This document shows, in pieces, positions 5,471-44,555 of a stretch of DNA of 49,116 nucleotides. The stretch comes from an uncultured Clostridia bacterium (GTDB lineage Bacteria > Bacillota > Clostridia > Oscillospirales > Ruminococcaceae). Within the stretch, counting starts at the first letter, position 1; each line of letters starts with the position of its first letter. Location of the stretch: assembly GCA_944387325.1 (NCBI GenBank), contig CALXEN010000030.1:1-49116 (forward strand), written 5' to 3'. Position numbers and translations under genes: made by a program. A model generated the notes under the pieces. It saw only the letters and a program-made list of their open reading frames with translations. It did not search any database and was not told where the DNA came from.

Positions 5471-5484
5471 CCTCTCTCCCTCCC

Positions 5485-12151: not shown

Positions 12152-13375
12152 ATGGGCAAAAACGCAATCGTGGGCCAGTCCGGCGGACCCACCTCGGTGA
12201 TCAACGCAAGCCTGGCCGGGGTTTTCCAGAGCTGTCAAGCCCGGGGCGCCCAGGTGGTTTACGGAATGTGCAACGGAGTGGCCGGCCTGCTGGAAAAGCG
12301 GGTGGTAGATCTCTCCAGCCAGCTGAAGGACCATATGGATGTGGAGCTGCTCAAGCGGACCCCTTCCAGCTTCCTGGGATCCTGCCGGTACAAACTGCCC
12401 CCCATTGAGGAAGGGCGGGAGGTCTACGAGAAGCTCTTTGACATTCTGAAAGAGCTGGACATCGGCTACTTCTTCTACATTGGCGGCAATGACAGTATGG
12501 ACACCATCGGAAAGCTGGCCGACTACGGCAAGCTGGTGGGGAGCGACATCCGGTTCATGGGGGTGCCCAAGACCATCGACAACGACCTGATGATCACCGA
12601 CCACACCCCCGGCTACGGCAGCGCTGCCAAGTACATTGGGGTGGTCATGAAAGAGATCATCCGGGACGCCACCGTCTACGGCACCAACTATGTGACCATT
12701 GTGGAGATCATGGGCCGGAATGCCGGCTGGCTCACCGCCGCCGCTGCCCTGGCCCGGGCCGAGGACTGCGAGGGGGTGGACATGATCTGCCTGCCCGAGA
12801 TTCCCTTCAACGTGGACCGGTTCGTGGAGAAGGTGGCCGCCATGCAGGCCAAAAAGCCCAGCATCGTTATCGCCGTCTCCGAGGGGGTCAAGCTGGAGGA
12901 CGGCCGGTATGTCTGCGAGCTGGCGGATGACGTCCATGCGGTGGACGCCTTCGGTCACAAGGCCCTCACCGGCACCGCCCGGTTCCTGGCCAACACCTGC
13001 GCCCGCCGTCTGAACACCAAGACCCGGTGCATCGAGCTCTCCACCCTGCAGCGGTGTGCCGGACACCTCACCAGCCGCACCGACATTACCGAAGCCTACC
13101 AGGTGGGCGGCGCCGCTGCCAAGGCCGCTTTTGAGGGGCATACCGGGGAGATGGTAGCCATCAAGCGGGTCTCCAACGCCCCCTACCAGAGCACCACCGA
13201 ACTCCATCCCATCAGCGAGGTGGCCAACCTGGAGAAGAAGGTCCCCCTGGAATGGATCAACGACACTCACACCGATATGCTTCCGGCGTTCCTGGAATAC
13301 GCCCGGCCCCTGATCCAGGCCGAACTGACCCCCATTTATGTGGACGGTCTCCCCTGCCACATCTGTATGAACTGA
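12152..13375 (+). CDS. pfp: phosphofructokinase, PPi-dependent type by sequence determinants (copy 2, tandem paralog)
   Basis: 407 aa from ATG 12152 (RBS GGGGA 6 nt upstream; the track start 12134 is a TTG). Motifs GQSGGPTSVINAS, IGGNDSMDT and GVPKTIDNDL. Collinear with copy 1. Confidence 0.88.
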   Translation: MGKNAIVGQSGGPTSVINASLAGVFQSCQARGAQVVYGMCNGVAGLLEKRVVDLSSQLKDHMDVELLKRTPSSFLGSCRYKLPPIEEGREVYEKLFDILKELDIGYFFYIGGNDSMDTIGKLADYGKLVGSDIRFMGVPKTIDNDLMITDHTPGYGSAAKYIGVVMKEIIRDATVYGTNYVTIVEIMGRNAGWLTAAAALARAEDCEGVDMICLPEIPFNVDRFVEKVAAMQAKKPSIVIAVSEGVKLEDGRYVCELADDVHAVDAFGHKALTGTARFLANTCARRLNTKTRCIELSTLQRCAGHLTSRTDITEAYQVGGAAAKAAFEGHTGEMVAIKRVSNAPYQSTTELHPISEVANLEKKVPLEWINDTHTDMLPAFLEYARPLIQAELTPIYVDGLPCHICMN

Positions 13376-29904: not shown

Positions 29905-30408
29905 TTACTCTCCTCCTTTGGGTTCTTTTTTGAAAATAAAGAGTTTACTGAAAAGATAGTTGGACAGGATGACCACCACCTGGCTGAACAATTTCACTCC
30001 CAAATTCCAGATTTTCACATATTCGGTGGAGATTGCCAGGCTTCCCATCATGAAGGTGACCCAACCCACGGGAATCAATTTCGGGCCCAGCAGGGTGACC
30101 CCGATAAAGAGGATGACCTGGTCCAGCACTGCGGTGCCCAGCCGACAGAGGATAAAGCTGAAAAATTCCCGCACCGCCTGCTTTCCCTTGGACTGGCTCT
30201 TAAAAACCCAGAGCCGGTTGGTGGTGTAGGCGAAGAGAATGCAGATGGCGTTATTGAGGATGTTCCCTGCCCCGGCGGCAAAACTGCTGCCCACGAAATG
30301 GTCAAAGAGGGTAAAGATCAGAATATTCAGCAGGGTCGCCAGTCCTCCGAAAAACAGATAGGCCAGACCCTCGTAATATTTTTGGAAAAGCGCTTTCAGC
30401 TTATTCAT
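29905..30408 (-). CDS. GtrA-family membrane protein (lipid-linked sugar flippase family)
   Basis: 167 aa with four hydrophobic helices. GtrA-like N-terminal pattern YLFFGGLATLLN...ILFAYTTNRLWVF. Confidence 0.85.
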   Translation of the reverse strand: MNKLKALFQKYYEGLAYLFFGGLATLLNILIFTLFDHFVGSSFAAGAGNILNNAICILFAYTTNRLWVFKSQSKGKQAVREFFSFILCRLGTAVLDQVILFIGVTLLGPKLIPVGWVTFMMGSLAISTEYVKIWNLGVKLFSQVVVILSNYLFSKLFIFKKEPKGGE

Positions 30409-30538: not shown

Positions 30539-32458
30539 TTACTCGGCGTCCTCGGCCTCGGCGTTCTCCAGAGCCTTCATGCTCAGGCTGATCCGCTTCT
30601 TGTCGAAGTCCACATCCATCAGCTTGACGGTGACCTCGTCGCCTACCTTCAGCACATCGGATACCTTGTTGACCCGGGTGTTGGAGATCTCGCTGATATG
30701 GACCAGACCGTCAATGCCGGGCAGGATCCGAACGAAAGCGCCAAAGTCAGTGATGCTGACCACGGGAGCGGTGAAGATGCTGCCCAGAGGATACTCGTTC
30801 TTCAGCTTCTCCCAGGGATTGTCCTCAGCCTTCTTGTAGCCCAGGCTGACCTTCTGGTTCTCGGGATCCAGCTCCTTGATGTAAACTTCCACCTGGTCGC
30901 CTACATTCATCACCTCACGGGGATGCTTGATCCGGTTCCAGCTCAGCTCACTGATATGGCACAGGCCGTCCACGCCGCCGATGTCCACAAAGGCGCCGTA
31001 GGAAGTCAGGCTCTTGACCACGCCCTGGCAGACCTGGCCCTCCTGAGCGTTGGCCCAGAAAGCCTCCCGCTTGGCCTTGTTGGCCTCGGCAGTGACCTTG
31101 TTGATGCTGCCCACGATCTTACGGCCGGCGCACTCGGTGACTACCAGCTGTACGTGCTGTTTGAGCAGCTTGGTGTAATCCTCATCACGGCGCAGGGTAG
31201 CCTGGCTGCGGGGCACAAATACCTTGACCCCCTTGACCAGAACGACCACACCGCCCTTGTTGGTCTCAGTAACGTCGCCTTCCACGACCTCGCCGGACTC
31301 GCAGGCCTGAGCGATTTCCTCCAGACCCTTGCGGGCTTCCAGCTTCTTCCGGGACAGCATATCCACGCCGTCCTGGTCGTTGGTCTTCTCCACTACAAAC
31401 TCCATCTCATCGCCCACCTTCACCAGGTCGCCGATGGATGCAGAAGAATCATCGGTCAGCTCGCTCAGCTTGCATACGCCGGTGTGTGCGCCGCCGATGT
31501 CAACAAAGATCTCGTTGTTATTGATGCTGGTGATCTTGCCCTTTACCACTTTGCCCACAAACACCCGATTGCTTTCAGCCTCGGACTCGGCCAGCAGCTC
31601 GGCAAAGCTCTTTTCCATGGTTTCGCTCATACTATTAAGTACCTCCTCAATTATGGACGATGGCGTGGAAGCCCCGGCCGTTACACCCACTGTTCCCGCC
31701 CCATCCCACCAGGATGGATCCAGGTCTGCGGCGGTCTCCACCGACACAGCTTTGGTATAGCGGGCAGCGACTTGTACCAGCTTTTGGGTATTGGAGGAAT
31801 GATGACCACCAATGACGATCATGAGATCGCATTTTTGGCTGAGGTCCTCCGCCTCCTGTTGCCTCGTCCCCGTTGCACTACATATTGTATCAAAAACAAA
31901 CGCATTTGTATAGACTTTTTTTATAAAGTCCACGCATTCTAACCATTTTGTAACCTGGAAGGTGGTCTGTGCCACAGCATAGACGAGGGTGTCGGAGGGA
32001 ATGTTTTTGGAGTATTCCTCCAGCTTGGCCAGGGTGTCGAAAACAAACACTTTTCCCCCGGAATGTCCCACAATTCCTCGTACTTCCGGGTGATTTTCAT
32101 CCCCGGCCACCAGCAGCAGCGCCCCTTCGCCCCGGGCTTTTTCCGCCAGGCGATGGATCTTGGATACAAAGGGGCAGGTGGCGTCATGGCACACCAGGCC
32201 ACGTGTATTTATTTCGTCATAAACCGAGGCAGGGACCCCATGGCACCGGATGACCACCTCGTATCCGTCTGGGATCTGGTCCAAGGAATCGGCGGTGATA
32301 ACGCCCTTTTCCTCCAGGTCCCGGACCATCTGGTCGTTGTGGATGAGGGGGCCCAGGGTGGCCACCTTATGGCCCTGGGCCACCAGGTCGTAGGTCATCT
32401 TGACCCCCCGGTCCACCCCAAAGCAGAACCCGGCGGTTTTAGCCAGCAGTATCTTCAT
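30539..32458 (-). CDS. ispH: bifunctional 4-hydroxy-3-methylbut-2-enyl diphosphate reductase / ribosomal protein S1-domain protein
   Basis: 639 aa from ATG 32458 ([19 protein letters not shown], IspH/LytB N-terminal half). The C-terminal half has four S1 repeats (e.g. [36 protein letters not shown]). The upstream 64 codons of the track ORF are Arg/Pro-rich noise. Confidence 0.92.
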
Positions 32459-33143
32459 GGTGTTCCTCCTCCGGGACAGCGGTCCGGGCCGCCCGCCGCT
32501 GGGGCAGGGGCTGGTCCGGCATCCAGTCCGGCTTGTTCTCCTGGTACAGCTGCCGCCAAGCGTCCTCCACCAGGTGTTTGTTCTCCCGCAGCCTGGCGGA
32601 GCTGGGCTTCCCGTCCTCCCCCAGCTGAGGGGCGGGGATGGGGGCGCCAAAGCAAACCTTCACCTTGCAGAAGAGGTGCATCTCCCGGTCCCTGGTGCAG
32701 TAGATGATCCGGCAGGGGATGAGGGGGGCATTGGCCTCGGCAGCCACCACAAAGGCGCCGCTCTTCAGCTTGCCGGGCCAGCCGTCATTTTTGCTTCGGG
32801 TGCCCTCGGCGAAGATCAGGACCCCCCGGCCCTCCCGGCAGCCCTCGGACACATGGTCCAAAAGCTGGGTGTCCCCTTTTCCCCGGGCCACTGCCACCGC
32901 CCCGAACTGGGTAAAGATCCATTTCAGAAGGGCGTTTTTGAAAAGTTCTTCCTTGGCCAGGACCAGCATCCGCTTGCCCCAAAACCGGGCGATGACCACA
33001 AAGACCGGGTCGATGGCGGAGATATGGTTGGGGACGATGACAAAGGAGCCCTGGGTGGGGATATTCTCCCGGCCCACCACCTGGATCCGGAAGGCCAGAT
33101 GCCAGAGCACCCAGGCTCCGGTAAGGCAAATAACGTAGATCAT
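32439..33143 (-). CDS. plsC: 1-acyl-sn-glycerol-3-phosphate acyltransferase
   Basis: 234 aa with the HX4D motif NHISAID and FAEGTRS. Confidence 0.9.
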   Translation of the reverse strand: MIYVICLTGAWVLWHLAFRIQVVGRENIPTQGSFVIVPNHISAIDPVFVVIARFWGKRMLVLAKEELFKNALLKWIFTQFGAVAVARGKGDTQLLDHVSEGCREGRGVLIFAEGTRSKNDGWPGKLKSGAFVVAAEANAPLIPCRIIYCTRDREMHLFCKVKVCFGAPIPAPQLGEDGKPSSARLRENKHLVEDAWRQLYQENKPDWMPDQPLPQRRAARTAVPEEEHHEDTAG

Positions 33144-33811
33144 CTCTGCCCCGCCTTTCCCCGGATCACCTCTTTCAGGGCTTCCAGGCTTTCCTCCAGA
33201 TTCAGGTGACTGGTATCCACCAGCACGGCATCCTCCGCCTGGCGGAGGGGGGCGATAGCCCGGTGGGTATCCTGATAATCCCGCTGGCGGATGTCTGCCA
33301 GCACCTGGTCATAGTCCGGGGACTGGCCCTTTTCCACCAGCTCCTTGTACCGGCGCTGGGCCCGGGCCTCATCGCTGGCGGTGAGGAAGATCTTGACCTG
33401 GGCGTGGGGCAGGATGACGGTGCCGATATCCCGGCCGTCCATCAGCACGTTGTTGGCCCGAGCCAGGTCCCGCTGGGTGTCCAGCAGGAACTGCCGCACT
33501 GCCGGGATGGCGGAGACGCCGCTGGCGGCCATTCCGATCTCCTCCGCCCGGATGGCGGTGCTCACATCCTCCCCGTTGAGATAGATATGCTGGGTCCCCT
33601 CCTCCAGCCGGATGTCCAGCCGGATGTCCGGAAGCAGGGGTTCCACCTGGTCTGCCGCCTTGGGGTCAGCCCCCTGCCGCACAGCGTAGAGGCCGATGGC
33701 CCGGTACATGGCCCCGGTATCCACATAGAGGTATCCCAGGTCCCGGGCCAGCTGTTTTGCCAGACTGGACTTTCCTGCCCCGCTGGGGCCGTCGATGGCA
33801 ATGTTGATCAT
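33140..33811 (-). CDS. cmk: cytidylate kinase
   Basis: 223 aa with P-loop IDGPSGAGKSS and YVDTGAMYR. Confidence 0.95.
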   Translation of the reverse strand: MINIAIDGPSGAGKSSLAKQLARDLGYLYVDTGAMYRAIGLYAVRQGADPKAADQVEPLLPDIRLDIRLEEGTQHIYLNGEDVSTAIRAEEIGMAASGVSAIPAVRQFLLDTQRDLARANNVLMDGRDIGTVILPHAQVKIFLTASDEARAQRRYKELVEKGQSPDYDQVLADIRQRDYQDTHRAIAPLRQAEDAVLVDTSHLNLEESLEALKEVIRGKAGQR

Positions 33812-33829
33812 GGTTTTTACCGTCCTTTT

Positions 33830-35044
33830 TCAAAATGCTCTGGCCGCCGCCTGGGCGGTGGAGAAGGCGATCTGGAGGTTGTATCCGCCGGTGTAGGCGT
33901 CCAGGTCCAGCACCTCCCCCGCAAAGTACAAACCGGGGCAGAGCTTGCTTTCCATGGTTTTGGGGTTCACCTGGCTTACATCCACCCCGCCGCTGGTGAT
34001 GACGGCGTGGTCCAGGTCTCCCCGCCGGGTGATGGGGACCCGGAAATGCTTCACCAGTTCCACCAGGCGGCGCTTTTCCTCCCGGGTGATCTGGTTGGCC
34101 TTGGTCTGGGGGTCGATCCCCCACCGGCGGACCATCACCGGCTGCATACTGGCAGGGAGCAGCTTGACCAGAGCCCCCTGGGCCGACTTGTTGGCCAGAA
34201 GAGCGAAATCCTGGGTGATCCGCTTATAGAGGGTATCCGGGTCCAGGGCCGGCTTCAGGTCGATCTCCGCCGTCCAGGTATGCTGCTTCATATTTTTGAT
34301 ATAGCAGCTGGCGGAGAGGGTGAGGGGCCCGCTGATCCCAAAATGGGTAAAGAGCATCTCCCCCTGCTGGGAGAAAACTGCCTTGTTGTCCTGATAAAGG
34401 GTGAGGGTGACATTTTTCAGGGCCAGCCCCATCATTTTGGGGCAATCCGGGTCAGGGCTGACCAGGCTGCAAAGGCTGGCCACCGGGGGCACGATCTTGT
34501 GTCCTGCCTGGGAAGCCAGCTTGTAGCCGTCTCCCCGGCTGCCGGTGCCGGGGTAACTGACCCCGCCGGTGGCAATGAGGACGGCGTCCCCCTTCCAGCG
34601 GCGGCCAGTGTCGTCCTCCACCCCAATGCACCGCCCCTCCTCCAGAAGGAGCTTTGTCACATGGGCGGAGCGGATGTCCGCCCCGGAGGCGTAGGTGAGA
34701 AGGGCCTGGCGGATATCCTCCGCCTGATCCGACACCGGGAATACTCGGCGCCCCCGCTCTGTTTTCAGGGGGACCCCCAGTTCCTGGAAGAGGGCCATGG
34801 TTTTGGCCGGAGGCCAGCTGTACAGGGCCGAATAGAGGAACCTGGGATTGGTCCGGACATTCTGGAGAAAGGTCTGCTCGTCGCAGTGGTTGGTCAGATT
34901 GCACCGGCCCTTGCCGGTGACCAGGATCTTTTTCCCGGGGATCTCGGAGTGCTCCAGCACCGTGACGGTGTGGCCCATCCGGCTGGCAGCTCCCGCCGCC
35001 ATCAGGCCGGCGGCGCCGCCGCCCACAATGATTATCTCTGCCAC
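33830..35044 (-). CDS. HI0933/BaiN-like NAD(P)/FAD-dependent oxidoreductase
   Basis: 404 aa from GTG 35044 (RBS GGGAGGTG 5 nt upstream). Motifs IIIVGGGAAGLMAA and GKGRCNLTN. The upstream part of the track ORF has no coding character. Confidence 0.85.
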   Translation of the reverse strand: MAEIIIVGGGAAGLMAAGAASRMGHTVTVLEHSEIPGKKILVTGKGRCNLTNHCDEQTFLQNVRTNPRFLYSALYSWPPAKTMALFQELGVPLKTERGRRVFPVSDQAEDIRQALLTYASGADIRSAHVTKLLLEEGRCIGVEDDTGRRWKGDAVLIATGGVSYPGTGSRGDGYKLASQAGHKIVPPVASLCSLVSPDPDCPKMMGLALKNVTLTLYQDNKAVFSQQGEMLFTHFGISGPLTLSASCYIKNMKQHTWTAEIDLKPALDPDTLYKRITQDFALLANKSAQGALVKLLPASMQPVMVRRWGIDPQTKANQITREEKRRLVELVKHFRVPITRRGDLDHAVITSGGVDVSQVNPKTMESKLCPGLYFAGEVLDLDAYTGGYNLQIAFSTAQAAARAF

Positions 35045-36699
35045 GGGCGCACCTCCCAGCCGGTATAGATGCCCAAAAGAGCATAAACCATAAGAAGCGG
35101 GTGGACTGTGGCCAGATACATGACATAGGTGCCGATCTGGAAGGCAGCCACCTCCATGAAGGCAATGAGGAAGACCCGGAGGAGGGCCATTCCCAGCAGA
35201 CCAGTGAGGATCCACCAGACCAGCCAGTCCCGGCGTTCCTTCATCCGGAACGCCTTCCGCATTTGTAAAAAGAGGGCCAGGACCAGGGCCAGGGGCAGGG
35301 CCACAGAGTAGACCAGCCGCACCCCGTTCAGCCCCAGATAGGCCAGCTTCTGGAGGGGGCTGTAATAGGGCAGATCGCTCCCCTCCTGGGCGGCGGCGTT
35401 GGCGGAGGACCCCAGATAGTCCTCATAGACCGCCAGCTCCTCCGCCGTCCCGATGGACCGCTGGTCGGCGTAATAGGGTTCACAGTCCTGGAAGGCGGCG
35501 CAGAACCAAAGGCTGTACCCAGCCTCCTGCACCACCGGCAGGATATATTCGCTCCGCACCGAGGGAGCGGTACCCGACCGCCTGCCCCCTTCCGAGGGGA
35601 GAAGGCCGCTGTCACAGGCGGCATTGATCTCATCCGCCACCTGCTGCCAATAGCTTTGGGCGGTGAGGGCCGTTTCATACTTTCCCTCCTGCTGGGCTGC
35701 CAGCCGGACCGCCCAGTAGAAGCCCCCTGCCCGGTAGTCCCCGGACGTAGGGTTCATATAGCTGTTTCGGATGGACTCGTCCTCCTCCAGCCAGTATTGC
35801 AGGCAATCCATGGCATCGGTGGCGTCGTAGATCTTCTGCCGCACCTCATAGGGCACCGACACCAGGGGGACGAATTCCTCTTCCTCCACCCGGTTCATGG
35901 CTCCCATAGCCTGGGAGAAGCTGCCGTAGGAGAAATCCGAGAGAGTGAACACCCCATAATATGCCAGGTTGATCCCTGCAAAGACCCCCAGCACTCCGGC
36001 GGTGACTGCCGCCGGGAGAAGAAGGGAAAGGCACCGGAGCGCCTTCCGGTCCAGGGATTTTTCCCGCAGGATGAACCAGACCAGGATCCCGCTCCCTGCC
36101 AGCAGGAAGGGAGCCAGCCAGTAGCCGTCCTCCCGGCAGAGCCAGCTGGAGGCCAGCCCCAGCCCGGCCAGCAGCTGCCAGCCCAGGCTGTATTTCAGGG
36201 GCTTCTGATACCGGAGGGCATATCCCATCACCCCTGCAAAGAAGAAGAGGCAGAGGGCGGGATAGATGCTGTCCCGGTAGACCCGGAGGGTGAAGCTGGC
36301 CATGGCGGAGGGCAGGAAGACCATAAGAGCAAAGCCTGCCAGCCGGGCCCACCGCTTTTCCACCACCGGCGCTGCGGACTGGACCAGAGCCAGGCAGCCT
36401 GCCGCCCAGAGAAGCTGGTTTGCCCCCAGGTAGGGCAGGCGGAGAAAATGGATCAGGGCCAGCCAAAGGGGAAACAGCATATGTTTGGAGAGGGTGAGCC
36501 AATCGTAGGGGCCCAGCCACTGACCTGCCGTCAGGTTCTGGGCCGCCCGGAACATCAGTTCATCATCAATGGGGGCGCCCCCCACCCAGACGTAGGTGTT
36601 CTGGAAAAAGCTCAGGAGGAACTTGATCCCCGTCAGGAGGATCACTCCCAGCCAGAACCAGGAGACAGGGATATCCTTTTGGGAAAAGCGATGTTTCAT
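35032..36699 (-). CDS. hypothetical 555-aa polytopic membrane protein, GT-C-like candidate
   Basis: Start ATG 36699 (ATGA overlap with the upstream gene). After TM1 comes an acidic loop, GGAPIDDELMF, then about 8 TM helices, a soluble loop of about 180 aa, and 3 C-terminal TM helices. The stop overlaps the flavoprotein GTG by 13 nt. Confidence 0.8.
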   Translation of the reverse strand: MKHRFSQKDIPVSWFWLGVILLTGIKFLLSFFQNTYVWVGGAPIDDELMFRAAQNLTAGQWLGPYDWLTLSKHMLFPLWLALIHFLRLPYLGANQLLWAAGCLALVQSAAPVVEKRWARLAGFALMVFLPSAMASFTLRVYRDSIYPALCLFFFAGVMGYALRYQKPLKYSLGWQLLAGLGLASSWLCREDGYWLAPFLLAGSGILVWFILREKSLDRKALRCLSLLLPAAVTAGVLGVFAGINLAYYGVFTLSDFSYGSFSQAMGAMNRVEEEEFVPLVSVPYEVRQKIYDATDAMDCLQYWLEEDESIRNSYMNPTSGDYRAGGFYWAVRLAAQQEGKYETALTAQSYWQQVADEINAACDSGLLPSEGGRRSGTAPSVRSEYILPVVQEAGYSLWFCAAFQDCEPYYADQRSIGTAEELAVYEDYLGSSANAAAQEGSDLPYYSPLQKLAYLGLNGVRLVYSVALPLALVLALFLQMRKAFRMKERRDWLVWWILTGLLGMALLRVFLIAFMEVAAFQIGTYVMYLATVHPLLMVYALLGIYTGWEVRPWQR

Positions 36700-37607
36700 T
36701 TCTGGATCTTCTCGATACTTTCTACAAAATACTGCTGTTTCTTGAACACAGTGTCCAAAATCAGAGAGAGATATTTCACCACCAGGGTCATGATGGCAAA
36801 CAGGCCGCTGAACCCGCAGGTGATGACGAACATGGTGGTGGTCCACCCTTCAATGGGATGGCCGGCCACCGTGACCGCCAAAGTATAAACGAGCTCTGCC
36901 AGAGCCAGCACCAGCATGGCCAGGGTGATGCCAAAGCTGATCCGGTACCCGGCGGTGGTGTAAAGGAGCAGACTGTTGACCCCCAGGTCCAGATCCTGGA
37001 AGTGGACGGCCTGGCCCTGGTATTCCAAAGTTCCCATCTTCAGGCCGCTGGCGGCGTAAGCCGCTTTCCGGTAGGGCAGATAGGCGCTGACCGCATGGAC
37101 CTTGTTCACCGCCCGGCGGGAGACCAGGCGGAAAGCCTCGGTGCGAAGGCGGTAGGCGGAACCGCTGTACCGGTTAAAGAGCCGGTAGAAGAGGCGGCTC
37201 CTTCCCCCGCAGCGGGAGGGGCAGACGTTTACAATGTCATTCCCTTCCATGGCCTTCCGGTAGGCTTCCCAGATGAGGGAGGAATCCCAGTTCATTCTGA
37301 TATCGTCGAACTCATACACATAGTCTCCAATGGAGATATCCAGCCCGGCGTTCATGCACTGTTCCACTCCCTGGCGGAGGCTCATGTGGAGGATGGTCAG
37401 GGGCTTGGTCATCTGGGCGGCAAACTCCCGCAGCCGTTCCAGGGCGGAGGCGGGGGCGCAGTCATTGACCACTACCAGCTCATATTGGGCGAAATGCTCC
37501 TCCAGCCGGTCAGAGAGCTCGGTGAAAAAGCCCTGGACATCCCCCCCCTCCGGGCCCAGATAGACCACGGCGGAGACAAAATTCTTTTCTTTTTCCTGAT
37601 TATTCAT
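36696..37607 (-). CDS. GT2 glycosyltransferase with two C-terminal TM helices (GtrB/CsbB/DPM1-like architecture)
   Basis: 303 aa from ATG 37607. Divergent GT-A core (FVSAVVYLGPE, VVVNDCAP, DYVYEFDD), then two C-terminal TM helices, ISFGITLAMLVLALAELVYTLAV and MFVITCGFSGLFAIMTLVV. Confidence 0.75.
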   Translation of the reverse strand: MNNQEKEKNFVSAVVYLGPEGGDVQGFFTELSDRLEEHFAQYELVVVNDCAPASALERLREFAAQMTKPLTILHMSLRQGVEQCMNAGLDISIGDYVYEFDDIRMNWDSSLIWEAYRKAMEGNDIVNVCPSRCGGRSRLFYRLFNRYSGSAYRLRTEAFRLVSRRAVNKVHAVSAYLPYRKAAYAASGLKMGTLEYQGQAVHFQDLDLGVNSLLLYTTAGYRISFGITLAMLVLALAELVYTLAVTVAGHPIEGWTTTMFVITCGFSGLFAIMTLVVKYLSLILDTVFKKQQYFVESIEKIQK

Positions 37608-38724
37608 GGAGCAGCACCTCGTCCAAATCATATACGGTATTGATCTTCCCGGACAGCACGCTCACCAGCCGGGGGCTGGCGCTCATTTCCCGGATGACGG
37701 TTGGCCGGGAGTCGTCGATCTCGCTGGCCTTGAGGATAGGCTTCATGCTGAACAGGCTTTTATAATACTCAAACCCGAATTCCTCCCGCAGGTATTTCCG
37801 GGCCAGCTGGCTCATGTAAGGCCAGGCGCTGGCAGGCTTTCCAGGACACTCGTTGCAGTTGTAGAGGCTGCCGGGGCGGCATTTTCCGCCGCTTTCTTCC
37901 TGGCAGGGGAAGGTGGCCACCGACTCCCGACTGGTCTGGTGAGGGGTAAAGGTGACGCTGGTCAGGCTGTGAAGCCCGGTCTTTCCAAAGGGCATGATGC
38001 TGAAGAAGGGCCCGTCCATAACGGTGATACCGGTGTTCTTCAGGGAATCGCTGACGGTGCAGAGGATGATCTCGCAAAGCTCATACTTGATCTTGAAGGG
38101 CTCCATCCCCAGCATGGCGTGGATGTCATTGACTCCCGCATAGGTGGCGTTGAGAAGGAATCCGGTGCGGAAGGTCTCCCCCGCCGCCTCCACCTCCCAC
38201 AGGTCTCCCAGGTTATGGATGGCGGTAGGCTGGGCACTGTACCGGATGGTCACGTTGGTGAGGGAGGCCAGCTGCTCCAGAAACCACTCTTTCAGGATCT
38301 GGGCGTCATAGGTGTATTCCTGGGTAAGGAAGGCTCCATCACACATTCCGGGGTTAAAGTATTTTTCGGTGGGGAGGCGGTCACACCGGATCCCCGCATC
38401 CCGGCAGAACTTTTCAAATTCCGGGCCATTGGTCCAGCTGAAATGGGCGCTGGTGGCGTAGACCTGGTCGAACTCCGTCAGGTTGCAGAAGCCGTAATCC
38501 CGGCAGAACCGGTCGAAGTAATGGGCACTCTTGATGGCGGTGGAGAAGCTGCGGGGATAGTGGTATCCCATGTGGACCCGGGCCTGGTTGATGTAGGTGG
38601 CCCGCATGAAGGGGCCTGCGTCCCGCTCCAGCACCAGCACCCGCTGGCCTGCCTCCCCGCATTTCAGAGCACTGTAAAGACCGTAGAGCCCGGCACCCAG
38701 AATGATCTTATCATATTGTTCCAT
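37600..38724 (-). CDS. FAD-dependent oxidoreductase (DAO/GlpD-like Rossmann N-terminus)
   Basis: 374 aa with the dinucleotide fold KIILGAGLYGLYSALKCGEAGQRVLVLER. It does not match UDP-galactopyranose mutase motifs as I remember them. Confidence 0.8.
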   Translation of the reverse strand: MEQYDKIILGAGLYGLYSALKCGEAGQRVLVLERDAGPFMRATYINQARVHMGYHYPRSFSTAIKSAHYFDRFCRDYGFCNLTEFDQVYATSAHFSWTNGPEFEKFCRDAGIRCDRLPTEKYFNPGMCDGAFLTQEYTYDAQILKEWFLEQLASLTNVTIRYSAQPTAIHNLGDLWEVEAAGETFRTGFLLNATYAGVNDIHAMLGMEPFKIKYELCEIILCTVSDSLKNTGITVMDGPFFSIMPFGKTGLHSLTSVTFTPHQTSRESVATFPCQEESGGKCRPGSLYNCNECPGKPASAWPYMSQLARKYLREEFGFEYYKSLFSMKPILKASEIDDSRPTVIREMSASPRLVSVLSGKINTVYDLDEVLLHE

Positions 38725-38736
38725 GGCGCTTTCCTT

Positions 38737-39528
38737 TCAGGGACGGTACTTCCCCGCCAGGGTGGCAAAGAGGATCCTCAGCAGGTCGGTGTTCCCTCTC
38801 ATTCCCTTGATCTTGGTGGGGGCGGGCTGGTTTTTGGGGTAGGCCCGGGTCACCGGGACCTCGCACCCTTTCAGTCCCAGCTGCTCCGCCCGGACGCTCA
38901 GGTAGGTCAGCAGCTCATACCCGGCAAAAATATCCCGGAAGGGCTGCACTGCCGGGTGCCGCAGATAAGCTCCGCTGTAAGCCCGGTAAGCGTTGGTGGT
39001 ATCGGTGTACCAGTGCCCGGCCGCCAGGCTGATGAGGGGGGCATGGATAAGCCGCACCGCCCAGTACCGCACCTTTGGGGTGTTGACGGCCTTGCCCCCC
39101 TTGATAAACCGGCTGCCCTGGACCAGGTCATATCCCTGGTCCAGTTTTTCAATGAACAGGGGCACGCTCTCGATGCTGTCCTTGTCGTTGCCATCAATAG
39201 TCAGGACCCCTTTGTATCCCCGCTCCAGGGCAAACCAGAGTCCCATCCGAAGCTGGGCCCCCTGTTTGCCGGGGCCGGTCTTCACCAGAAGGGTGTTCAC
39301 CCCCCGGGCTGTAAGGCCATCAGGCTCCATGCTGCCGTCGGTGCTCCCCCCATCGCAGAGGATGATATCCACCAGGGCGTCCACCCCGGCGGCCTTGGCC
39401 CGGTCCAGCTGGCGCAGGATCCGTTCCCCCTCGTTGATGATGGGGACGAGCAGACAGTATTTTGTTTTTTTCTCTTGAAATTCCGTGCAGGTAAAATCCG
39501 GCACGCCTTTGAGATCCTTGTATTCCAT
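38737..39528 (-). CDS. soluble GT2-family glycosyltransferase
   Basis: 263 aa from ATG 39528 (RBS GGGAGG). Motifs LLVPIINEGERI, CDGGSTDGS and the DxD-type TIDGNDKD. No TM segment. Confidence 0.82.
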   Translation of the reverse strand: MEYKDLKGVPDFTCTEFQEKKTKYCLLVPIINEGERILRQLDRAKAAGVDALVDIILCDGGSTDGSMEPDGLTARGVNTLLVKTGPGKQGAQLRMGLWFALERGYKGVLTIDGNDKDSIESVPLFIEKLDQGYDLVQGSRFIKGGKAVNTPKVRYWAVRLIHAPLISLAAGHWYTDTTNAYRAYSGAYLRHPAVQPFRDIFAGYELLTYLSVRAEQLGLKGCEVPVTRAYPKNQPAPTKIKGMRGNTDLLRILFATLAGKYRP

Positions 39529-39569
39529 CTGTTCCTCCCGTATCTCCCATACTAAGCCATGGGAATGGT

Positions 39570-42380
39570 TTAGTCCAGGGTATCCCCCCGGCAAAGCTGC
39601 AAGTTTTCCACCTGGGCAGTTTGATCTCCCCAAAGGAGCAGCGAAAGGCTGTCTGCTCCCGGCTGGTACCAGGCAGGCTCGCCGCTGACCCGGATTTTAT
39701 ACCGGTGAGTTCCCTCCACCACCTTAAACTGGAACTGGGCGATGGATTCCCCCTCCCGCAGCAAGGTAAGGGATATGTTTTCCTGTTCTCCTCCAGTATA
39801 GGTAAGGGTAAATTGGATATAATTTCCCTCCGCCTTATCCCGGTCTGTCAGGTCCAGAATGGCGGTGACTGCCTGGCCGACGCCTGTGGCTCCCTCCTCC
39901 TGCAGAACCATGAGAGGCTCCGCTTCCAGAGGATCCTCCTCCCCCCAAATCAAGGGCAGGTAGCGCAGCGTATGCAGGTGTTCCCCTTCTTCTGCCAGGG
40001 AGCTCACCCCCTCCAGACCTTCCAACTTAGCCTGCTGGGTTTCAAGCAGATCGTTTCTGCACCAGACCGTATACCGGCTTACGGTACACAGAGGCGTGTA
40101 GTTTTGAGACAGGTACTCTCCCACCAGGTAATACCGCTGATAGAAAGAAAGACTGTCCAGACTGCCCTTGGAAAAATCTGCCCAAGTCAGAAGATATACG
40201 CAGTCTGCTCCGGCACATTGGCCGATGAAGCATTGTTGGGCATATTCCCCGTTCAACAGCCCGGGACTCTGATTCACATAGGTGGGTTTGTACCGCCCTG
40301 TCAGGGCATAAAGCAGTGTATCATCGGTAAAATCAATATAAGTTTGGTCCGGCTCCAGGGTCGCATCCAGAAGCGTTTTCAGGGGGATGTAACAATCCTC
40401 TGTCTCTGTAGAGAGGACGGTGCGTACCTGGGTAAGGGGAGCGCTGTATTCCTGGTACTGTTCCACACTGCCCAGGCCGTCGGCCAGGGAACCGTTCCAG
40501 GCCAAAGTACCCCCTCCCGTCAGGGTGAGCAGCACCAAAGACAGGGTATATCCCCCGGCCAACACCAGTCCGGGCCAGTTCTTTTTTCCCTTCTCCCACA
40601 GGTAGACCGCCGCCAAAGGCAAAAACAGCAGAGCCGTACCCATGAGAGGGAAGAGGTTATTGTAGCTTTCTGCCGCCGTGTGACGCACCAGAGACCGTTG
40701 AAAATTGACCAGATAGGCCACCGCCAGAGCAAAAAGCACCCCACCCTTTGGTTCGGCAAAGCTAGATCTTTTCCACTCGAGAAAGACAGCCGCAGCAGTC
40801 AGTACCACCAGAGCAGGGATCACCAGGTAAGCGGTCCAATACCCTGCTCCTTCTCCCAAAGTTGCCCCGCTCCAAACCTGGCTGGACAGAGCCGTAGCCA
40901 GCAGTTCCTTCAACCGGCTGATCAAGGGTACTCCCCTGTAAAAGGTCAAGGCTGCCATCGACCCAAGTACCAGCGCAACACTGGTCAGCCCGGTTCCCAG
41001 GGTCCTGCCCAGTTTACGCCACTGCTGCCGCCCCACCAGGGATACAAGAGCCGCAGCGGCAACGCCAAAGGTGACGGAGGTCCCCACATCCAGCACATAG
41101 AGAATACCGCCTCCGCAGGCCAGCCAGAGGGCAAAGTGCCGGGGCAGCCGGTCCTGTTCCAGATACCTCCCCAATAGCAGGAATACTCCCAACAGGATGG
41201 CATAATACTCCGCCAGGGCCACATCGGACCGCCACGGGAAGAAAAGGACAAGACAGGCCGCAGCCCATGCCGGTGTGTATTTTTTCAGGAAGAAATACAG
41301 GGAGATGGAGGCCAGCGGCAAAACCGAGTAACCGTACCAAAGGGAGCCCAGCGCATCCCCCGATAACAGCCGGTAAAGGGCTGCCGGGAGGAAACTTCGG
41401 AGCATATGTGCATCAAAATTCTGTATAATGGGGAATTCCCCATATTGAAACAGCTGGTAAACCGCCATTCCCGTGTTGGCACTTTCAAACAGCTCATTCG
41501 GGGGGACAAGCTGGACCGGCAGCTGCCCGACCAGCATGGCCATCCCCAGAATCAGAAAGACATAGATTTTCTCCGTTCCTTTTTCCCCTGGCTCCCCTCT
41601 TTTCAGCAGGAAAAGCAGCCCGCAGGCCAGAACCGGCAGGAAGGCCAGCATAAGGATATGTCTTCCCTGCAGGGAGATCAAAATCCCGTGCTGTGCCAGA
41701 AGAATTCTTCCTTCGTAGAGCAGGGAAATCAGTACGCCGCCCAGGCTCAAAGGCCAAAGATGATCCCAGCTCAAAGCCGGGATCCAGGTCCGGGCTGCTG
41801 TTATCCCCAGTGTGAGGACAAGGTAGATGAGGACTGACGCCGCCCAGGGCAGATCCCAGCCCAGAACACCGGCCAAAGCCCAGGCCACCGGCAGGAGTCC
41901 GGCTGGGAGAAGGAAACTGACCAACTGTTCCCCGGCCGAAATCCCAAAGAGAAGAAACAAAAGCTGGATGCAAGCCCCGGACACCAGGATCAGATCCCCC
42001 TGATTGGGCTCCCATCCGGGGGCATTCCCGCTGACAAAAAGGACCGTCATCCTAGCTGCGCCGCAAAGGCTCCAGAGTGCTGACAGATCCCACTGGGTGG
42101 AAGAAAGTTCCTTCTTCCTCTCAGCCGCTCTTTGACAGATGAAGCGGCCGATCCCCCAAAGAGCCACGGGCCCGGCCAGGGAGAGGAGGTACATTACTGT
42201 AATCCGGCTTGACACGGACACACCGTAGGTGGTTGCGATCCCCACCACACGGTCAAAGTTTTCCAGTTTCCAAAGCCGATCCATAGGGAGTATCGCCAGG
42301 AGAAAAAGCCAAAGGAATCCCAGCTGGATAGCCAGAGTTATCCCTTTCTTTTTTGCTGTCACTTGAACCATCTTATCCAA
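39570..42380 (-). CDS. hypothetical 936-aa polytopic membrane protein with a C-terminal extracytoplasmic domain of about 330 aa
   Basis: About 600 aa of TM helices, then a soluble beta-rich-looking C-terminus. The track start 42380 is a TTG overlapping the upstream stop; ATG 42371 is an alternative. It looks more AT-rich than its neighbours. Confidence 0.8.
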   Translation of the reverse strand: MDKMVQVTAKKKGITLAIQLGFLWLFLLAILPMDRLWKLENFDRVVGIATTYGVSVSSRITVMYLLSLAGPVALWGIGRFICQRAAERKKELSSTQWDLSALWSLCGAARMTVLFVSGNAPGWEPNQGDLILVSGACIQLLFLLFGISAGEQLVSFLLPAGLLPVAWALAGVLGWDLPWAASVLIYLVLTLGITAARTWIPALSWDHLWPLSLGGVLISLLYEGRILLAQHGILISLQGRHILMLAFLPVLACGLLFLLKRGEPGEKGTEKIYVFLILGMAMLVGQLPVQLVPPNELFESANTGMAVYQLFQYGEFPIIQNFDAHMLRSFLPAALYRLLSGDALGSLWYGYSVLPLASISLYFFLKKYTPAWAAACLVLFFPWRSDVALAEYYAILLGVFLLLGRYLEQDRLPRHFALWLACGGGILYVLDVGTSVTFGVAAAALVSLVGRQQWRKLGRTLGTGLTSVALVLGSMAALTFYRGVPLISRLKELLATALSSQVWSGATLGEGAGYWTAYLVIPALVVLTAAAVFLEWKRSSFAEPKGGVLFALAVAYLVNFQRSLVRHTAAESYNNLFPLMGTALLFLPLAAVYLWEKGKKNWPGLVLAGGYTLSLVLLTLTGGGTLAWNGSLADGLGSVEQYQEYSAPLTQVRTVLSTETEDCYIPLKTLLDATLEPDQTYIDFTDDTLLYALTGRYKPTYVNQSPGLLNGEYAQQCFIGQCAGADCVYLLTWADFSKGSLDSLSFYQRYYLVGEYLSQNYTPLCTVSRYTVWCRNDLLETQQAKLEGLEGVSSLAEEGEHLHTLRYLPLIWGEEDPLEAEPLMVLQEEGATGVGQAVTAILDLTDRDKAEGNYIQFTLTYTGGEQENISLTLLREGESIAQFQFKVVEGTHRYKIRVSGEPAWYQPGADSLSLLLWGDQTAQVENLQLCRGDTLD

Positions 42381-43161
42381 ATACCTCTTTCAAATAGGTC
42401 AGGCAGCGGTCCAGGGTGTCACAGTCCGCCGCTTTCATTTCCAGAGAAACATACCCCTTATACCCCACCGCATGGAGGAGCAGGGCCAGTTCCCGGTGGA
42501 TGGGTCGAGGCTGGATGGGAGTCAGGCCCGGTTCACTGATGTGGATATGGCTCACATATTTCAGGTCGTTCAGATAATCGTTGAGGGATTCTCCATTCTG
42601 GATCATGGCGCCCAGGTCCAGATTCACCGAAAGACCGGGAATGTCCAGCTTTTTCACCAGGTCAAAGGCCTGGCGGGTGGTATTGAGATAGTTGGTATTA
42701 TAAATGGGAGGATTGGCCTCCAGGGCCAGATATACCCCCTTCTGCCCGGCCAGGATCCCCAGCCGGGTGAAGAAATCCTCCGCCTCCTCCGGCCGGTGGT
42801 CCGGGGGGCAGTTCCGCTGCCGGGGGCAGCCAAAGACCAGGCTGGGGCAGCGGACAGCCCGGGCAAAGTCAAAGGCCTGGGCGGTGTACTCCTCCAACCG
42901 GGCAGCGTCCTCCTGGTTGAAAATATTTCCATTCTGACCGAACCAGATGCTCTGGAGGCTGGGGATCTCCAGCCCGTAATTCTGGTAGAGGTATCCGGCA
43001 AAGAGGGCGGCGGAGGAGAGCCTCTCATAGGGCTGCTCCGGAAAGATACGGGTGGGCGCCAGTTCCAGCCCCTGATACCCCAGCTCCTTCAGCCGGGCAT
43101 AGACCCGCTCGTCTTCCTCTTTGGTCCAGCCCAGATTGCTGGCTGCCAGTTTGATGGCCAT
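42373..43161 (-). CDS. sugar phosphate isomerase/epimerase (xylose-isomerase-like TIM barrel)
   Basis: 262 aa. Family-typical pattern GYQGLELAP..., LALEANP, HIHISE and VSLEMK. Confidence 0.82.
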   Translation of the reverse strand: MAIKLAASNLGWTKEEDERVYARLKELGYQGLELAPTRIFPEQPYERLSSAALFAGYLYQNYGLEIPSLQSIWFGQNGNIFNQEDAARLEEYTAQAFDFARAVRCPSLVFGCPRQRNCPPDHRPEEAEDFFTRLGILAGQKGVYLALEANPPIYNTNYLNTTRQAFDLVKKLDIPGLSVNLDLGAMIQNGESLNDYLNDLKYVSHIHISEPGLTPIQPRPIHRELALLLHAVGYKGYVSLEMKAADCDTLDRCLTYLKEVFG

Positions 43162-43165
43162 GGGT

Positions 43166-44083
43166 TCACTTCCATTCCTTCATAAAGTTGCAGATATCCG
43201 CCAGTTCCTCCTCCCGGGTGAGGAGGTATCCCTCCTGTCCCCCCAGAAGCGGAGCATACCGGCTGCGGAGATCGTAATCGTAGGGCGGGGCGGCGGTGGC
43301 GTTCTCCCACACCTTCCCGGTGAGGGCGGTGTACACCTCCCCCGCCGACACCGGCGGAGTGGTGAGGTTAAGGAGGGTCAGCTCCTGTTCCAGGGCCCGG
43401 GTGATATCCTTCCAGAGGCGGCTCAGGTTGTAGTACTGGTACCGGCTGGCGCTGTGGGTAAAGGCCAGGGCATTAAAGTCATTGCCGGCAAAAAACTCTC
43501 GCAGGGCCTTCCGGTCCGCCTCTTCCGTCAGTTTATAAAATCCGTTGTCTGCCAACTGGTAGTTTTCCCTTACCAGCCGACTTTTCTCCGCCAGTTCCCG
43601 GTATTTGTCCGGCCGGAGCATAGCGGGGGTGATGGTGTGGAGGTCATAGAGGAAATTCTTTTTCAATCCCTTTCCGTAAAGGGCGGGGAGCCGGACAATG
43701 AGGGCCCGGGGAAAGTCCTGGCGGACCCACTGTTCAAGCTGAAGCCGGTTGGCCCCGTAGGGAGCCAGTCCTTCCTTGTCCATGGGGCTGCTCTCGTCCT
43801 TTCCCCGGCTATCCTTATATACCGCAATGGAGCTTATAAGGACCAGCTGTTTGGGGGCAATACGGCGGATATTTTCCCTTGCCTGCGCCATGACTGCCAG
43901 GTCCGCCTCCGGGTCCTGGTTGGCCAGGAACATGGCAGCGGGAACGCCTGCATAGACGGCCAGGTCCGGGTGGGTGCCATACCCCTCCTGAATGTCCCGG
44001 GAGTGGAGGACCATGGAAAAATCATGGGAAAGCATAAGATTTCCTCCCACAAAGCCGGTGCTGCCTACCAGAAGATCCTTCAT
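43166..44083 (-). CDS. NAD-dependent epimerase/dehydratase-family (extended SDR) protein, atypical catalytic motif
   Basis: 305 aa. Rossmann motif VGSTGFVGGNL and LISSIAVY, but the YxxxK position reads YGANR (Arg in place of Lys). Confidence 0.78.
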   Translation of the reverse strand: MKDLLVGSTGFVGGNLMLSHDFSMVLHSRDIQEGYGTHPDLAVYAGVPAAMFLANQDPEADLAVMAQARENIRRIAPKQLVLISSIAVYKDSRGKDESSPMDKEGLAPYGANRLQLEQWVRQDFPRALIVRLPALYGKGLKKNFLYDLHTITPAMLRPDKYRELAEKSRLVRENYQLADNGFYKLTEEADRKALREFFAGNDFNALAFTHSASRYQYYNLSRLWKDITRALEQELTLLNLTTPPVSAGEVYTALTGKVWENATAAPPYDYDLRSRYAPLLGGQEGYLLTREEELADICNFMKEWK

Positions 44084-44133
44084 CCCCGTTTTCCTCCCGT
44101 TTGGCGGTATTCCGCCATTTTATGATCTTTTTT

Positions 44134-44162
44134 ATTATACTATTAAACAGTGGAAAAAGCAA
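44134..44162 (-). promoter_or_regulatory. promoter of the 44083->30539 transcription unit
   Basis: On the minus strand: TTGCTT (44162-44157), 17-nt spacer, TATAAT (44139-44134). It lies just downstream of the preceding terminator. Confidence 0.5.
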
Positions 44163-44261: not shown

Positions 44262-44555
44262 TCAGCTCTGTTTTTTATACCACACATAACCTCCCATACC
44301 AATGAGGATGGCGATCCCCACCCCGCTGCGGACCGTGGAGACCATGGCGTCGAACCCTGCCTCCCGGAGGGCATCCTCCTGGGCTTCCTCCTCCCGGGCC
44401 AGCTGTTCTTCCACCTCCTGTTGGATCCCGGCGGGAACGCTCTCCTCCCCGGTTTCTTCCTCCGCCTCCAGGGCAAAGGCTGCCAGGGGGATCAGCCCCA
44501 ACAGCAGCAGTCCGGCCAGTGCGCCCGCCAGCCCTCTCAACCAGATTTTTTTCAT
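44262..44555 (-). CDS. hypothetical 97-aa protein: signal peptide, highly acidic linker, C-terminal TM anchor
   Basis: ATG 44555 follows GGGAGG. Translates MKKIWLRGLAGALAGLLLLGLIPLAAFA, then the Glu-rich stretch LEAEEETGEE..EEEAQED, then GVGIAILIGMGGYVWY-KKQS. Confidence 0.65.
   Translation of the reverse strand: MKKIWLRGLAGALAGLLLLGLIPLAAFALEAEEETGEESVPAGIQQEVEEQLAREEEAQEDALREAGFDAMVSTVRSGVGIAILIGMGGYVWYKKQS

Follow-up and report, generated by a model that had tools for sequence, protein, structure and literature searches.

The locus described here raises the question of why a flavin adenine dinucleotide (FAD)-dependent enzyme, a xylose-isomerase-like triosephosphate isomerase (TIM) barrel and a short-chain dehydrogenase/reductase (SDR) are packed into the same run of genes as two family 2 glycosyltransferases (GT2) and two large polytopic membrane proteins. 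The run lies on the minus strand of contig CALXEN010000030.1 (assembly GCA_944387325.1) of an uncultured Clostridia bacterium of the Ruminococcaceae, and the whole stretch of 49,116 nucleotides that was analysed is called the window below. Our overall proposal, which we hold with moderate confidence, is that a lipid-linked sugar donor is remodelled by oxidation, epimerisation and reduction, then flipped and finally transferred by a glycosyltransferase of the GT-C fold. The seven genes are, in the order of transcription:

43166-44083 (-): SDR of the RmlD type, 305 aa; Pfam RmlD_sub_bind and Epimerase
42373-43161 (-): xylose-isomerase-like TIM barrel (TIM), 262 aa; Pfam AP_endonuc_2
39570-42371 (-): P936, polytopic protein, 933 aa from the ATG at 42371; no Pfam match
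38737-39528 (-): soluble GT2 (sGT2), 263 aa; Pfam GT2; best NCBIfam models AglJ, dolichyl-P hexose transferase, far below the cut-off
37600-38724 (-): flavoenzyme (FAD gene), 374 aa; Pfam DAO and NAD_binding_8
36696-37607 (-): GT2-TM, GtrB-like GT2, 303 aa; best NCBIfam model PgfS
35032-36699 (-): P555, polytopic protein of predicted GT-C fold, 555 aa; no Pfam match

The initial annotation had read these genes as one translationally coupled glycosylation cassette. All seven open reading frames (ORFs) are present where it had placed them, and its coarse domain calls were upheld by Pfam/NCBIfam and by hydropathy, which was used to count the transmembrane (TM) segments of the window proteins. The idea that the seven form one unit did not survive the comparison with other genomes, since P936 is strain-variable and absent from the closest relatives and P555 is restricted to one lineage. 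The seven genes are better described, on comparative sequence grounds, as a composite, in which the evolutionary unit appears to be a core of five: SDR, TIM, soluble GT2, FAD and GT2-TM.

When the flavoenzyme was searched against a database of 5.8 billion clusters, 7721 of the 8000 scored candidates matched, the best of them being 74-92% identical, an unusually high conservation. At least 594 species-representative genomes bear the FAD gene, and the locus counts reported here come from the best 80, in which the flavoenzyme is 63-96% identical to that of the window. GT2-TM directly follows FAD in 79 of the 80 loci (the sole exception is a contig of 2.8 kb) and all five core genes are found in 62; on account of these two counts, the gene arrangement is far beyond chance. 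The order SDR-TIM-sGT2-FAD-GT2TM was observed in 49 loci and the order FAD-GT2TM-SDR-TIM-sGT2 in another 10. In three uncultured Clostridia/Bacilli metagenome-assembled genomes (MAGs), SDR and TIM are fused into a single protein of 580 aa (L072, positions 277-2019; L078; L088). The 80 loci take in Oscillospiraceae, Lachnospiraceae (Hungatella hathewayi, Lacrimispora), Acetobacterium and Anaerotruncus, and also MAGs labelled Dialister, Sphaerochaeta, Endomicrobium, Bacteroidales, Synergistaceae and Thermoflexaceae; the check on co-occurrence that had been suggested for Clostridia consequently finds the core well beyond them, in several phyla. Outside the Oscillospiraceae group, the median identity to the window proteins is 67% for FAD and 63% for the soluble GT2, as against 45% for SDR, 44% for TIM and 40% for GT2-TM.

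The matches of the window proteins to NCBIfam (June 2026) are all below threshold and the source annotations are generic. As the initial annotation had supposed of this gene combination, no account of the module was found in the literature searched or in NCBIfam, a gap in the literature being no proof of novelty; the module is apparently widely conserved yet undescribed.

A separate observation regards four contigs labelled Collinsella, Bulleidia, Coriobacteriaceae and Bacteroides (L012, L013, L014 and L061), which nevertheless have the synteny of the Gemmiger type (module, HI0933, cmk, plsC, ispH-S1). The FAD identity is 79-80% in the first three and 66% in L061, and the shared synteny suggests mis-binned or mislabelled MAG contigs.

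The two genes outside the core behave differently from it. The P555 family was found only in the Faecalibacterium/Gemmiger/Fournierella group. P936 is missing from the otherwise same locus of the closest relatives (L003, an 84%-identical MAG contig; L004; and L010, an uncultured Gemmiger sp. whose flavoenzyme is 96% identical) and from that of Allofournierella massiliensis. Outside the window, a word-indexed search recovered P936 from just four contigs, all from the narrow clade to which the window belongs, and each time the gene occupies the slot that separates TIM from the soluble GT2. The copy in L007 is intact (87% identity), that in L005 is likewise intact but only 47% identical, as compared to 82-92% for the flanking genes, and that in L006 is broken into two ORFs. 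Alignment of the junctions revealed that P936 starts at the exact GGATAAGATG position at which the soluble GT2 starts in genomes without it, and that the insert carries its own 41-nt spacer and ribosome-binding site. P936 is, on the evidence of these sequences, a strain-variable, fast-diverging insertion outside the conserved unit.

The composition of the complete functional unit is shown by distant flavoenzyme homologues (29-37% identity) carried on proteobacterial plasmids. Plasmids of Cereibacter sphaeroides and Sphingomonas sanguinis contain an overlapping gene string, SDR-TIM-GT2TM-FAD-GtrA-sGT2-polytopic, in which GT2-TM is degenerate. On the C. sphaeroides plasmid p.A (L092, 10558-13077) the last two members are one 839-aa protein, annotated merely as 'glycosyltransferase family 2 protein', which joins a soluble GT2, 50% identical to that of the window, to a polytopic domain (about 540 aa) whose first TM segment is followed by the motif WHDEG. 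The 10.8-kb Psychrobacter plasmid pA22P4 (NZ_MN657058.1, L090) contains SDR-TIM-SMR-FAD-GT2TM-sGT2-polytopic as its sole cargo besides replication and mobilisation genes. Its GT2-TM is an intact, unannotated ORF with two C-terminal TM helices (L090, about 5410-6403), and its polytopic protein, of 479 aa, has WTDEA after TM1; a literature search on the plasmid name found nothing. In Azospirillum, SDR-TIM-GT2-FAD-GT2TM lies within a locus of the O-antigen type. Taken together, these cassettes show a complete unit made up of the tailoring trio, the two GT2 enzymes, a small flippase and a polytopic transferase, which agrees in essence with the initial annotation, except that the seventh member is GtrA and not P936.

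As to the chemistry, the most informative loci are those without SDR, or without both SDR and TIM. They keep the triad of FAD, GT2-TM and small GT2, and contain another carbonyl-consuming enzyme: a DegT aminotransferase in Acetobacterium paludosum (L083, where the TIM barrel is kept) and in a Thermoflexaceae MAG (L076), with different gene orders; a Gfo/Idh/MocA protein in Anaerotruncus colihominis and Agathobaculum (L080, L037); and an aldo-keto reductase in Lacrimispora (L064). Because SDR and TIM are replaced in this way, the pattern is best explained, at the level of comparative genomics, if the flavoenzyme makes a keto intermediate that is then reduced, epimerised or transaminated by its partners. 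The earlier idea that the trio might oxidise, isomerise and re-reduce a sugar thus gains circumstantial support from the SDR-TIM fusions and from these swaps with other keto-processing enzymes.

The model of the flavoenzyme (predicted local distance difference test, pLDDT, 81) matches the fold of glycine oxidase, sarcosine oxidase, D-arginine dehydrogenase, NikD and GlpD with a TM-score of about 0.7, and the protein is therefore modelled as a dehydrogenase of the D-amino acid oxidase (DAAO)/GR2 type, acting on C-N or C-OH bonds, and is a candidate for the oxidase that makes the keto intermediate. It had been likened to DprE1, a comparison that does not extend to homology: Pfam assigns it to DAO/NAD_binding_8, and the fold is that of DAAO, not VAO/FAD_binding_4. 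It is not a UDP-galactopyranose mutase either, since there is no GLF Pfam match and the mutase matches only the N-terminal Rossmann part, with an E-value of 0.89. A four-cysteine motif, CX7CX7CX2C (C274, C282, C290, C293), is invariant in flavoenzymes of the Firmicutes type. It sits in an insertion that the proteobacterial homologues do not have, and is therefore not a family requirement; a universal redox centre was discarded for the same reason, and the motif may be a structural metal site.

The TIM barrel has conserved acidic and His residues in the motifs LALEANP, NLDLG, HIHISE and SLEM. Its nearest solved relatives are ketose 3-epimerases, its weak NCBIfam matches include hydroxypyruvate and 2-oxo-tetronate isomerases, and it is a candidate metal-dependent epimerase, isomerase or dehydratase acting beside a keto group. 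The SDR, a candidate keto-sugar reductase, has the GxxGxxG motif and, in place of the usual catalytic YxxxK of SDRs, a YxxxR (Y109, R113) that is invariant in its family. According to hydropathy, SDR, TIM barrel, flavoenzyme and soluble GT2 contain no TM segment.

The membrane side of the system is represented by GT2-TM, which has two C-terminal TM segments. Residues 12-297 align over the full length with residues 29-328 of the GtrB structure sll0501 (E-value 3e-10), as expected from the GtrB architecture first ascribed to it. The acidic residues D49, D94 and D101 are kept, the last two being invariant, and the score against the PgfS model (NF047588) is 66 bits, the cut-off being 500. The soluble GT2 matches the DPMS and ArnC catalytic domains and the AglJ model, with intact DGGSTDGS and DGNDKD motifs; matches to the ArnC model score 20-28 bits as compared to a cut-off of 529. 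Because the soluble GT2 is highly conserved and is found fused to a polytopic protein, and because GT2-TM is degenerate in proteobacteria, the former may be the catalytic synthase, with GT2-TM as a membrane partner that also serves the flavoenzyme, by analogy with DPM1/DPM3 and GacI/GacJ. Archaeal Agl pathways add a second sugar to a lipid-linked monosaccharide, and by this other analogy the two GT2 enzymes might add two sugars in succession, which is another option.

P555 has at least eight TM segments by hydropathy. Its AlphaFold model (pLDDT 86; predicted TM-score, pTM, 0.88) was compared with the PDB by Foldseek, and the best match was ArnT (E-value 1.8e-4, probability 1.0), followed by other matches that are all GT-C enzymes: EmbA/B, AglB, Pmt1/2/4, STT3, AftD and PglB. 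Global TM-scores against GT-C enzymes were 0.3-0.4, low values being expected across GT-C families. The acidic residues D45-D46-E47, right after TM1, are invariant in 22 homologues. P555 thus has, by its model, the GT-C fold together with the acidic loop noticed earlier, and is a lineage-specific member of this class; the lack of such a fold, named in the initial annotation as a refuting condition, does not apply to it. A further polytopic glycosyltransferase is encoded elsewhere in the window (13498-16440, minus strand): it is a 980-aa protein with two GT-C modules, GT87 (residues 68-320) and PMT plus PMT_4TMC (611-978), and it could use the same or another lipid-linked donor.

P936 has about 13 TM segments and a soluble C-terminal part of about 310 aa. 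The five relatives recovered by the word-indexed search gave it the appearance of an orphan, which was dispelled by an exhaustive HMMER search: this assigned it to a family numbering 757 representative clusters, with identities of 25-36% and lengths of 900-1350 aa. No Pfam domain was found in P936 or in the 39 relatives scanned (40 members), no PDB profile matched P936, and hhalign comparisons with P555, YfhO, PMT_2, GtrII, GT87 and DUF6311 gave probabilities of at most 11%. Kinship with YfhO, PMT_2, GtrII or P555 was for this reason set aside, having no support from Pfam, from the PDB profile search or from hhalign. A gene of this family is the immediate upstream neighbour of FAD in each of three unrelated Clostridia loci (L047, L056, L059), so that the link of the family to the module recurs. 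This context favours a GT-C-like role of P936, which is a candidate additional polytopic glycosyltransferase. The operon of related genomes also houses further polytopic genes (GtrII, GT87, DUF6311 and an unannotated 445-aa family), placed either after the soluble GT2 and before FAD or after GT2-TM and before P555. The P936 slot and the varied GT-C genes of related species suggest strain-level variation of the surface glycan.

Around the cassette, the features that bear on its transcription and on the flippase are the following:

44117-44162 (-): AT-rich promoter-like region upstream of the SDR gene, from a sequence scan
30539-35044 (-): HI0933-like flavoprotein, cmk, plsC and ispH-S1, housekeeping genes downstream of P555
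30492-30518 (-): terminator-like hairpin of 12 pairs with a T run, between ispH-S1 and GtrA
29905-30408 (-): small membrane protein of the GtrA family, 167 aa, about 4 TM segments; Pfam E-value 3.5e-17

The gaps read from the sequence are 4 nt between SDR and TIM, 41 nt between P936 and the soluble GT2, and 12 nt between the latter and FAD, followed by overlaps of 8 nt (FAD/GT2-TM) and 4 nt (GT2-TM/P555). The spacing given in the initial annotation stands, apart from its P936 start. A TTG at 42380 (936 aa) would overlap TIM by 8 nt, whereas the ATG at 42371, chosen by the gene caller and by the homologues, leaves a gap of 1 nt; this ATG is most likely the true start, which makes the protein 933 aa long. 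Tight coupling continues past the boundary formerly drawn at 35032 into four housekeeping genes: P555 shares 13 nt with the HI0933-like gene, a gap of 18 nt leads to cmk, and the next two junctions, to plsC and to ispH-S1, are overlaps of 4 nt and 20 nt. No strong terminator is met on the minus strand downstream of the cassette before the hairpin at 30518-30492, so that the transcription unit probably extends into HI0933-cmk-plsC-ispH-S1. These genes are probably co-transcribed passengers outside the pathway. A functional tie of the cassette to them was rejected, because they are linked to it only in loci of the Oscillospiraceae type; linkage to HI0933-cmk-plsC-ispH-GtrA-DeoC is confined to the Faecalibacterium/Gemmiger/Fournierella group. 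The gene at 30539-32458 (minus strand) encodes IspH (LytB) and four S1 RNA-binding domains in one protein, a fusion that is kept across the related loci.

Upstream, a small ORF of 97 aa (44262-44555, minus strand), whose product combines an N-terminus resembling a signal peptide, an acidic central part and a hydrophobic anchor at the C-terminus, is kept in the closest relatives only, between DegV and the SDR gene. It is closed by a terminator hairpin (44260-44221), after which the AT-rich promoter-like stretch leads to the SDR gene. The hexamers TTGCTT-17-TATAAT originally chosen are visible in the sequence; the promoter scan chose TTAATA-18-TAAAAT at 44146-44117 instead, and a promoter predicted from the sequence upstream of SDR is plausible. 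No Rfam match to a riboswitch or other RNA element was found anywhere in the window.

The GtrA gene, expected at about 5 kb, starts 4.6 kb downstream of the cassette, beyond the terminator, and is probably a separate transcription unit; its product is the candidate flippase. Other loci have their own solutions. In seven of them, tandem EamA half-transporters of about 113 aa, of the ArnE/ArnF type, lie beside the module, and outside the Oscillospiraceae the module adjoins PMT_2, YfhO, GtrII and Acyl_transf_3 proteins. Homologous cassettes embed GtrA, SMR or ArnE/F-like flippases together with known GT-C families, which lends independent support to the three-component logic (GT2, flippase, GT-C) that had been put forward for this locus.

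From what is directly observed, that is gene order, domains and folds, conservation, fusions and partner swaps, we infer the enzymatic steps, the lipid carrier, the sugar and the acceptor as follows. The soluble GT2 and/or GT2-TM would take a common sugar from its nucleotide-activated form and, on the inner side of the membrane, load it onto undecaprenyl phosphate. The DAAO-fold flavoenzyme would then turn a hydroxyl of the sugar into a ketone, the metal-dependent TIM barrel would invert or rearrange a neighbouring centre, and the RmlD-like SDR would reduce the ketone, giving a rare sugar that would stay attached to the lipid throughout. A small flippase (GtrA here, SMR or an ArnE/F-like pair in other lineages) would carry the donor outward, where P555 would hand the sugar to an acceptor in the cell envelope. 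P936 would act as a strain-variable accessory membrane protein, probably adding the same donor to a second acceptor or position.

The least settled part of this proposal is the level at which tailoring occurs. ArnD and Rhizobium etli WreQ are precedents for the tailoring of a lipid-linked sugar. We favour this level because FAD stays adjacent to membrane components, because the core has no enzyme that forms a nucleotide sugar, and because DprE1/DprE2 and Citrobacter ORF13 are also precedents (PMC11127046); even so, we give it slightly less than an even chance. Wider still, and to be taken as tentative, is the idea of a pan-bacterial hub of lipid-linked keto-sugars, in which the DAAO-fold flavoenzyme would act on undecaprenyl-P-sugars, interchangeable partners would convert the product into rare or amino sugars, and diverse GT-C enzymes would install them.

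Several points weigh against the proposal as a whole. The FAD, SDR and TIM proteins have no predicted membrane segment, and characterised sugar enzymes of the DegT, RmlD-like and Gfo/Idh/MocA families use nucleotide sugars. The need for two GT2 enzymes is unexplained. The GtrA gene of the window lies behind a terminator and is missing at the matching position in Allofournierella, and no relation of P936 to any GT-C family was detected by Pfam, PDB profile search or hhalign. A further point comes from viruses: two IMG/VR contigs of about 180-190 kb and 33% GC (L094, L095) encode a 47%-identical flavoenzyme homologue with an aldo-keto reductase gene directly after it, and the 8 kb around it contain no membrane protein. 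The flavoenzyme family, therefore, need not be lipid-specific, and the viral proteins may be a soluble oxidation-reduction epimerase pair of a large phage. A phage-borne module comparable to gtrABC was also considered and discarded, because these were the only two IMG/VR contigs with such a 47%-identical FAD homologue and there were no GT2 or membrane genes nearby. Apart from these, a 4-kb unannotated record from human faeces (MT839812.1, 'Bacteriophage sp.') ends in part of the flavoenzyme gene, at 76% identity, and is probably bacterial rather than phage DNA.

The alternative that survives best is that the FAD/TIM/SDR trio works in the cytoplasm, on a soluble nucleotide sugar, and that the rare sugar is finished before a GT2 loads it onto undecaprenyl phosphate. 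The absence of TM segments in the tailoring enzymes and the viral context free of membrane proteins speak for this alternative, and DegT, Gfo/Idh/MocA, aldo-keto reductase and RmlD-like SDR all belong to families with characterised members that use nucleoside diphosphate (NDP)-sugars. Against it stand the bacterial loci, in which FAD is always beside membrane components (GT2-TM in 79 of 80) and, in proteobacteria, lies between GT2-TM and GtrA or SMR, and in which the conserved core contains no nucleotidyltransferase or NDP-sugar dehydratase. Moreover, we know of no precedent for the oxidation of an NDP-sugar by a DAAO-fold flavoenzyme, and on balance we regard this alternative as unlikely, though worth keeping in mind.

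It is also conceivable that the redox trio acts off the sugar ring, on a glycerol-, glycerate- or polyol-phosphate substituent, on an amine (by the C-N oxidation of the DAAO family) or on the polyprenol carrier. In fact, the folds closest to the flavoenzyme are those of GlpD and of the amine oxidases glycine oxidase, sarcosine oxidase and D-arginine dehydrogenase, and the weak NCBIfam matches of the TIM barrel include hydroxypyruvate and 2-oxo-tetronate isomerases. All NCBIfam matches are far below their cut-offs, and both the replacement of SDR/TIM by sugar-type DegT, Gfo/Idh/MocA or aldo-keto reductase and the RmlD-like nature of the SDR fit keto-sugar chemistry better, which makes this explanation improbable. 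Lastly, the view that the seven genes are unrelated neighbours packed by operon compaction, without a common pathway, can draw on the equally tight spacing into unrelated housekeeping genes, for which reason tight spacing alone proves nothing, and is yet so improbable as to be effectively refuted by the comparative data, that is by a core kept across phyla in two gene orders, by the gene fusions and by the system being the only cargo of a small plasmid.

If the proposal of a remodelled lipid-linked donor is true, its consequences are not confined to this genome. Three-component glycosylation systems are known to attach ordinary hexoses to O-antigens, to teichoic acids and to wall polysaccharides, and shape phage sensitivity, serotype and host recognition. 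The present module would define a large, cross-phylum group of such systems with its own sugar-remodelling chemistry and with a flavoenzyme family new to glycan assembly. Carriers of the flavoenzyme include abundant gut commensals (the Gemmiger, Faecalibacterium and Fournierella group, and Hungatella), and the system is also found on proteobacterial plasmids; undiscovered rare sugars would accordingly be predicted on the surfaces of commensal cells. Glycoengineering would gain a portable cassette of seven genes, and the drug target DprE1/DprE2 would have a second counterpart that is not homologous to it. Were the hub of keto-sugars to exist as well, surface-sugar diversity would arise at the membrane rather than in the nucleotide-sugar pool, including in abundant human gut Clostridia. 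Elsewhere in the window, two tandem phosphofructokinase paralogues of about 410 aa each were observed on the plus strand (10672-11898 and 12134-13375).

Among the systems already known, the Pgf locus of Streptococcus mutans (PgfS, PgfM1, PgfE, PgfM2) shares with the cassette a GtrB-like GT2, an SDR epimerase and two polytopic proteins in one operon; unlike the cassette, it has no flavoenzyme, TIM barrel or second GT2, and the PgfS score obtained here is far below the cut-off. The Arn pathway shares an ArnC-like GT2 (weak matches) and ArnT, the best structural match of P555, and the variant cassettes also share ArnE/F-like half-transporter pairs and a DegT aminotransferase. Oxidation in that pathway is NAD-dependent and takes place on UDP-glucuronic acid, whereas the candidate for oxidation in the cassette is a flavoenzyme, and Pfam and NCBIfam revealed no ArnA, ArnB or ArnD orthologue in the cassette and the scanned surroundings.

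The multi-component transmembrane systems (phage GtrA-GtrB-Gtr(type); CsbB-GtcA-YfhO; Csd/CflA; reviewed in PMC8035078) have in common with the module a GT2 of the GtrB type that ends in two TM helices, and a GT-C enzyme with an acidic motif after TM1; their small flippase of the GtrA/SMR type, which may be unlinked, has its candidate counterpart in the GtrA of the window. GacI/GacJ provides a precedent for a soluble GT-A with a membrane partner. The described systems move an unmodified hexose or N-acetylhexosamine; the present module has, in addition, the trio of DAAO-fold flavoenzyme, TIM barrel and SDR, together with a further GT2 that is soluble. The 2021 review of the Gram-positive systems mentions no oxidoreductase, FAD or epimerase (PMC8035078).

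In DprE1/DprE2 (mycobacteria, and the D-arabinofuranose of Pseudomonas pilin), oxidation by a flavoenzyme is followed by reduction by an SDR, as proposed for the cassette; there it takes place on a polyprenyl-P-sugar, the donor that Emb/Aft enzymes of the GT-C class use outside the cytoplasm. DprE1 is a member of the VAO/FAD_binding_4 family, whereas the flavoenzyme of the cassette has the DAAO/GR2 fold. The mycobacterial donor is made from phosphoribosyl pyrophosphate by a UbiA-type synthase and no TIM barrel takes part, whereas the donor enzymes of the cassette are GT2; a Pfam scan found no UbiA-type gene in the cassette or in the surrounding genes.

The pentofuranose system of Citrobacter youngae O1/O2 consists of the PPPRS-PRP protein ORF15, the MATE protein ORF14, the GT136 enzyme ORF12 and the epimerase ORF13 (PMC11127046). 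As proposed for the cassette, synthesis of a lipid-linked donor is followed by epimerisation, which is optional, by flipping and by transfer through a GT-C enzyme, in that case after polymerisation, and the epimerases are modular (PMC11127046). The enzymes are different: a UbiA-like phosphoribosyltransferase, a MATE flippase and a single predicted epimerase, ORF13, stand there in place of the FAD/TIM/SDR trio (PMC11127046), and none of the PPPRS-PRP synthase, MATE flippase and GT136 families was found in the cassette by Pfam/NCBIfam. These auxiliary epimerases acting on undecaprenyl phosphate-linked pentofuranoses are the closest concept to the module described here, realised by unrelated enzymes (PMC11127046).

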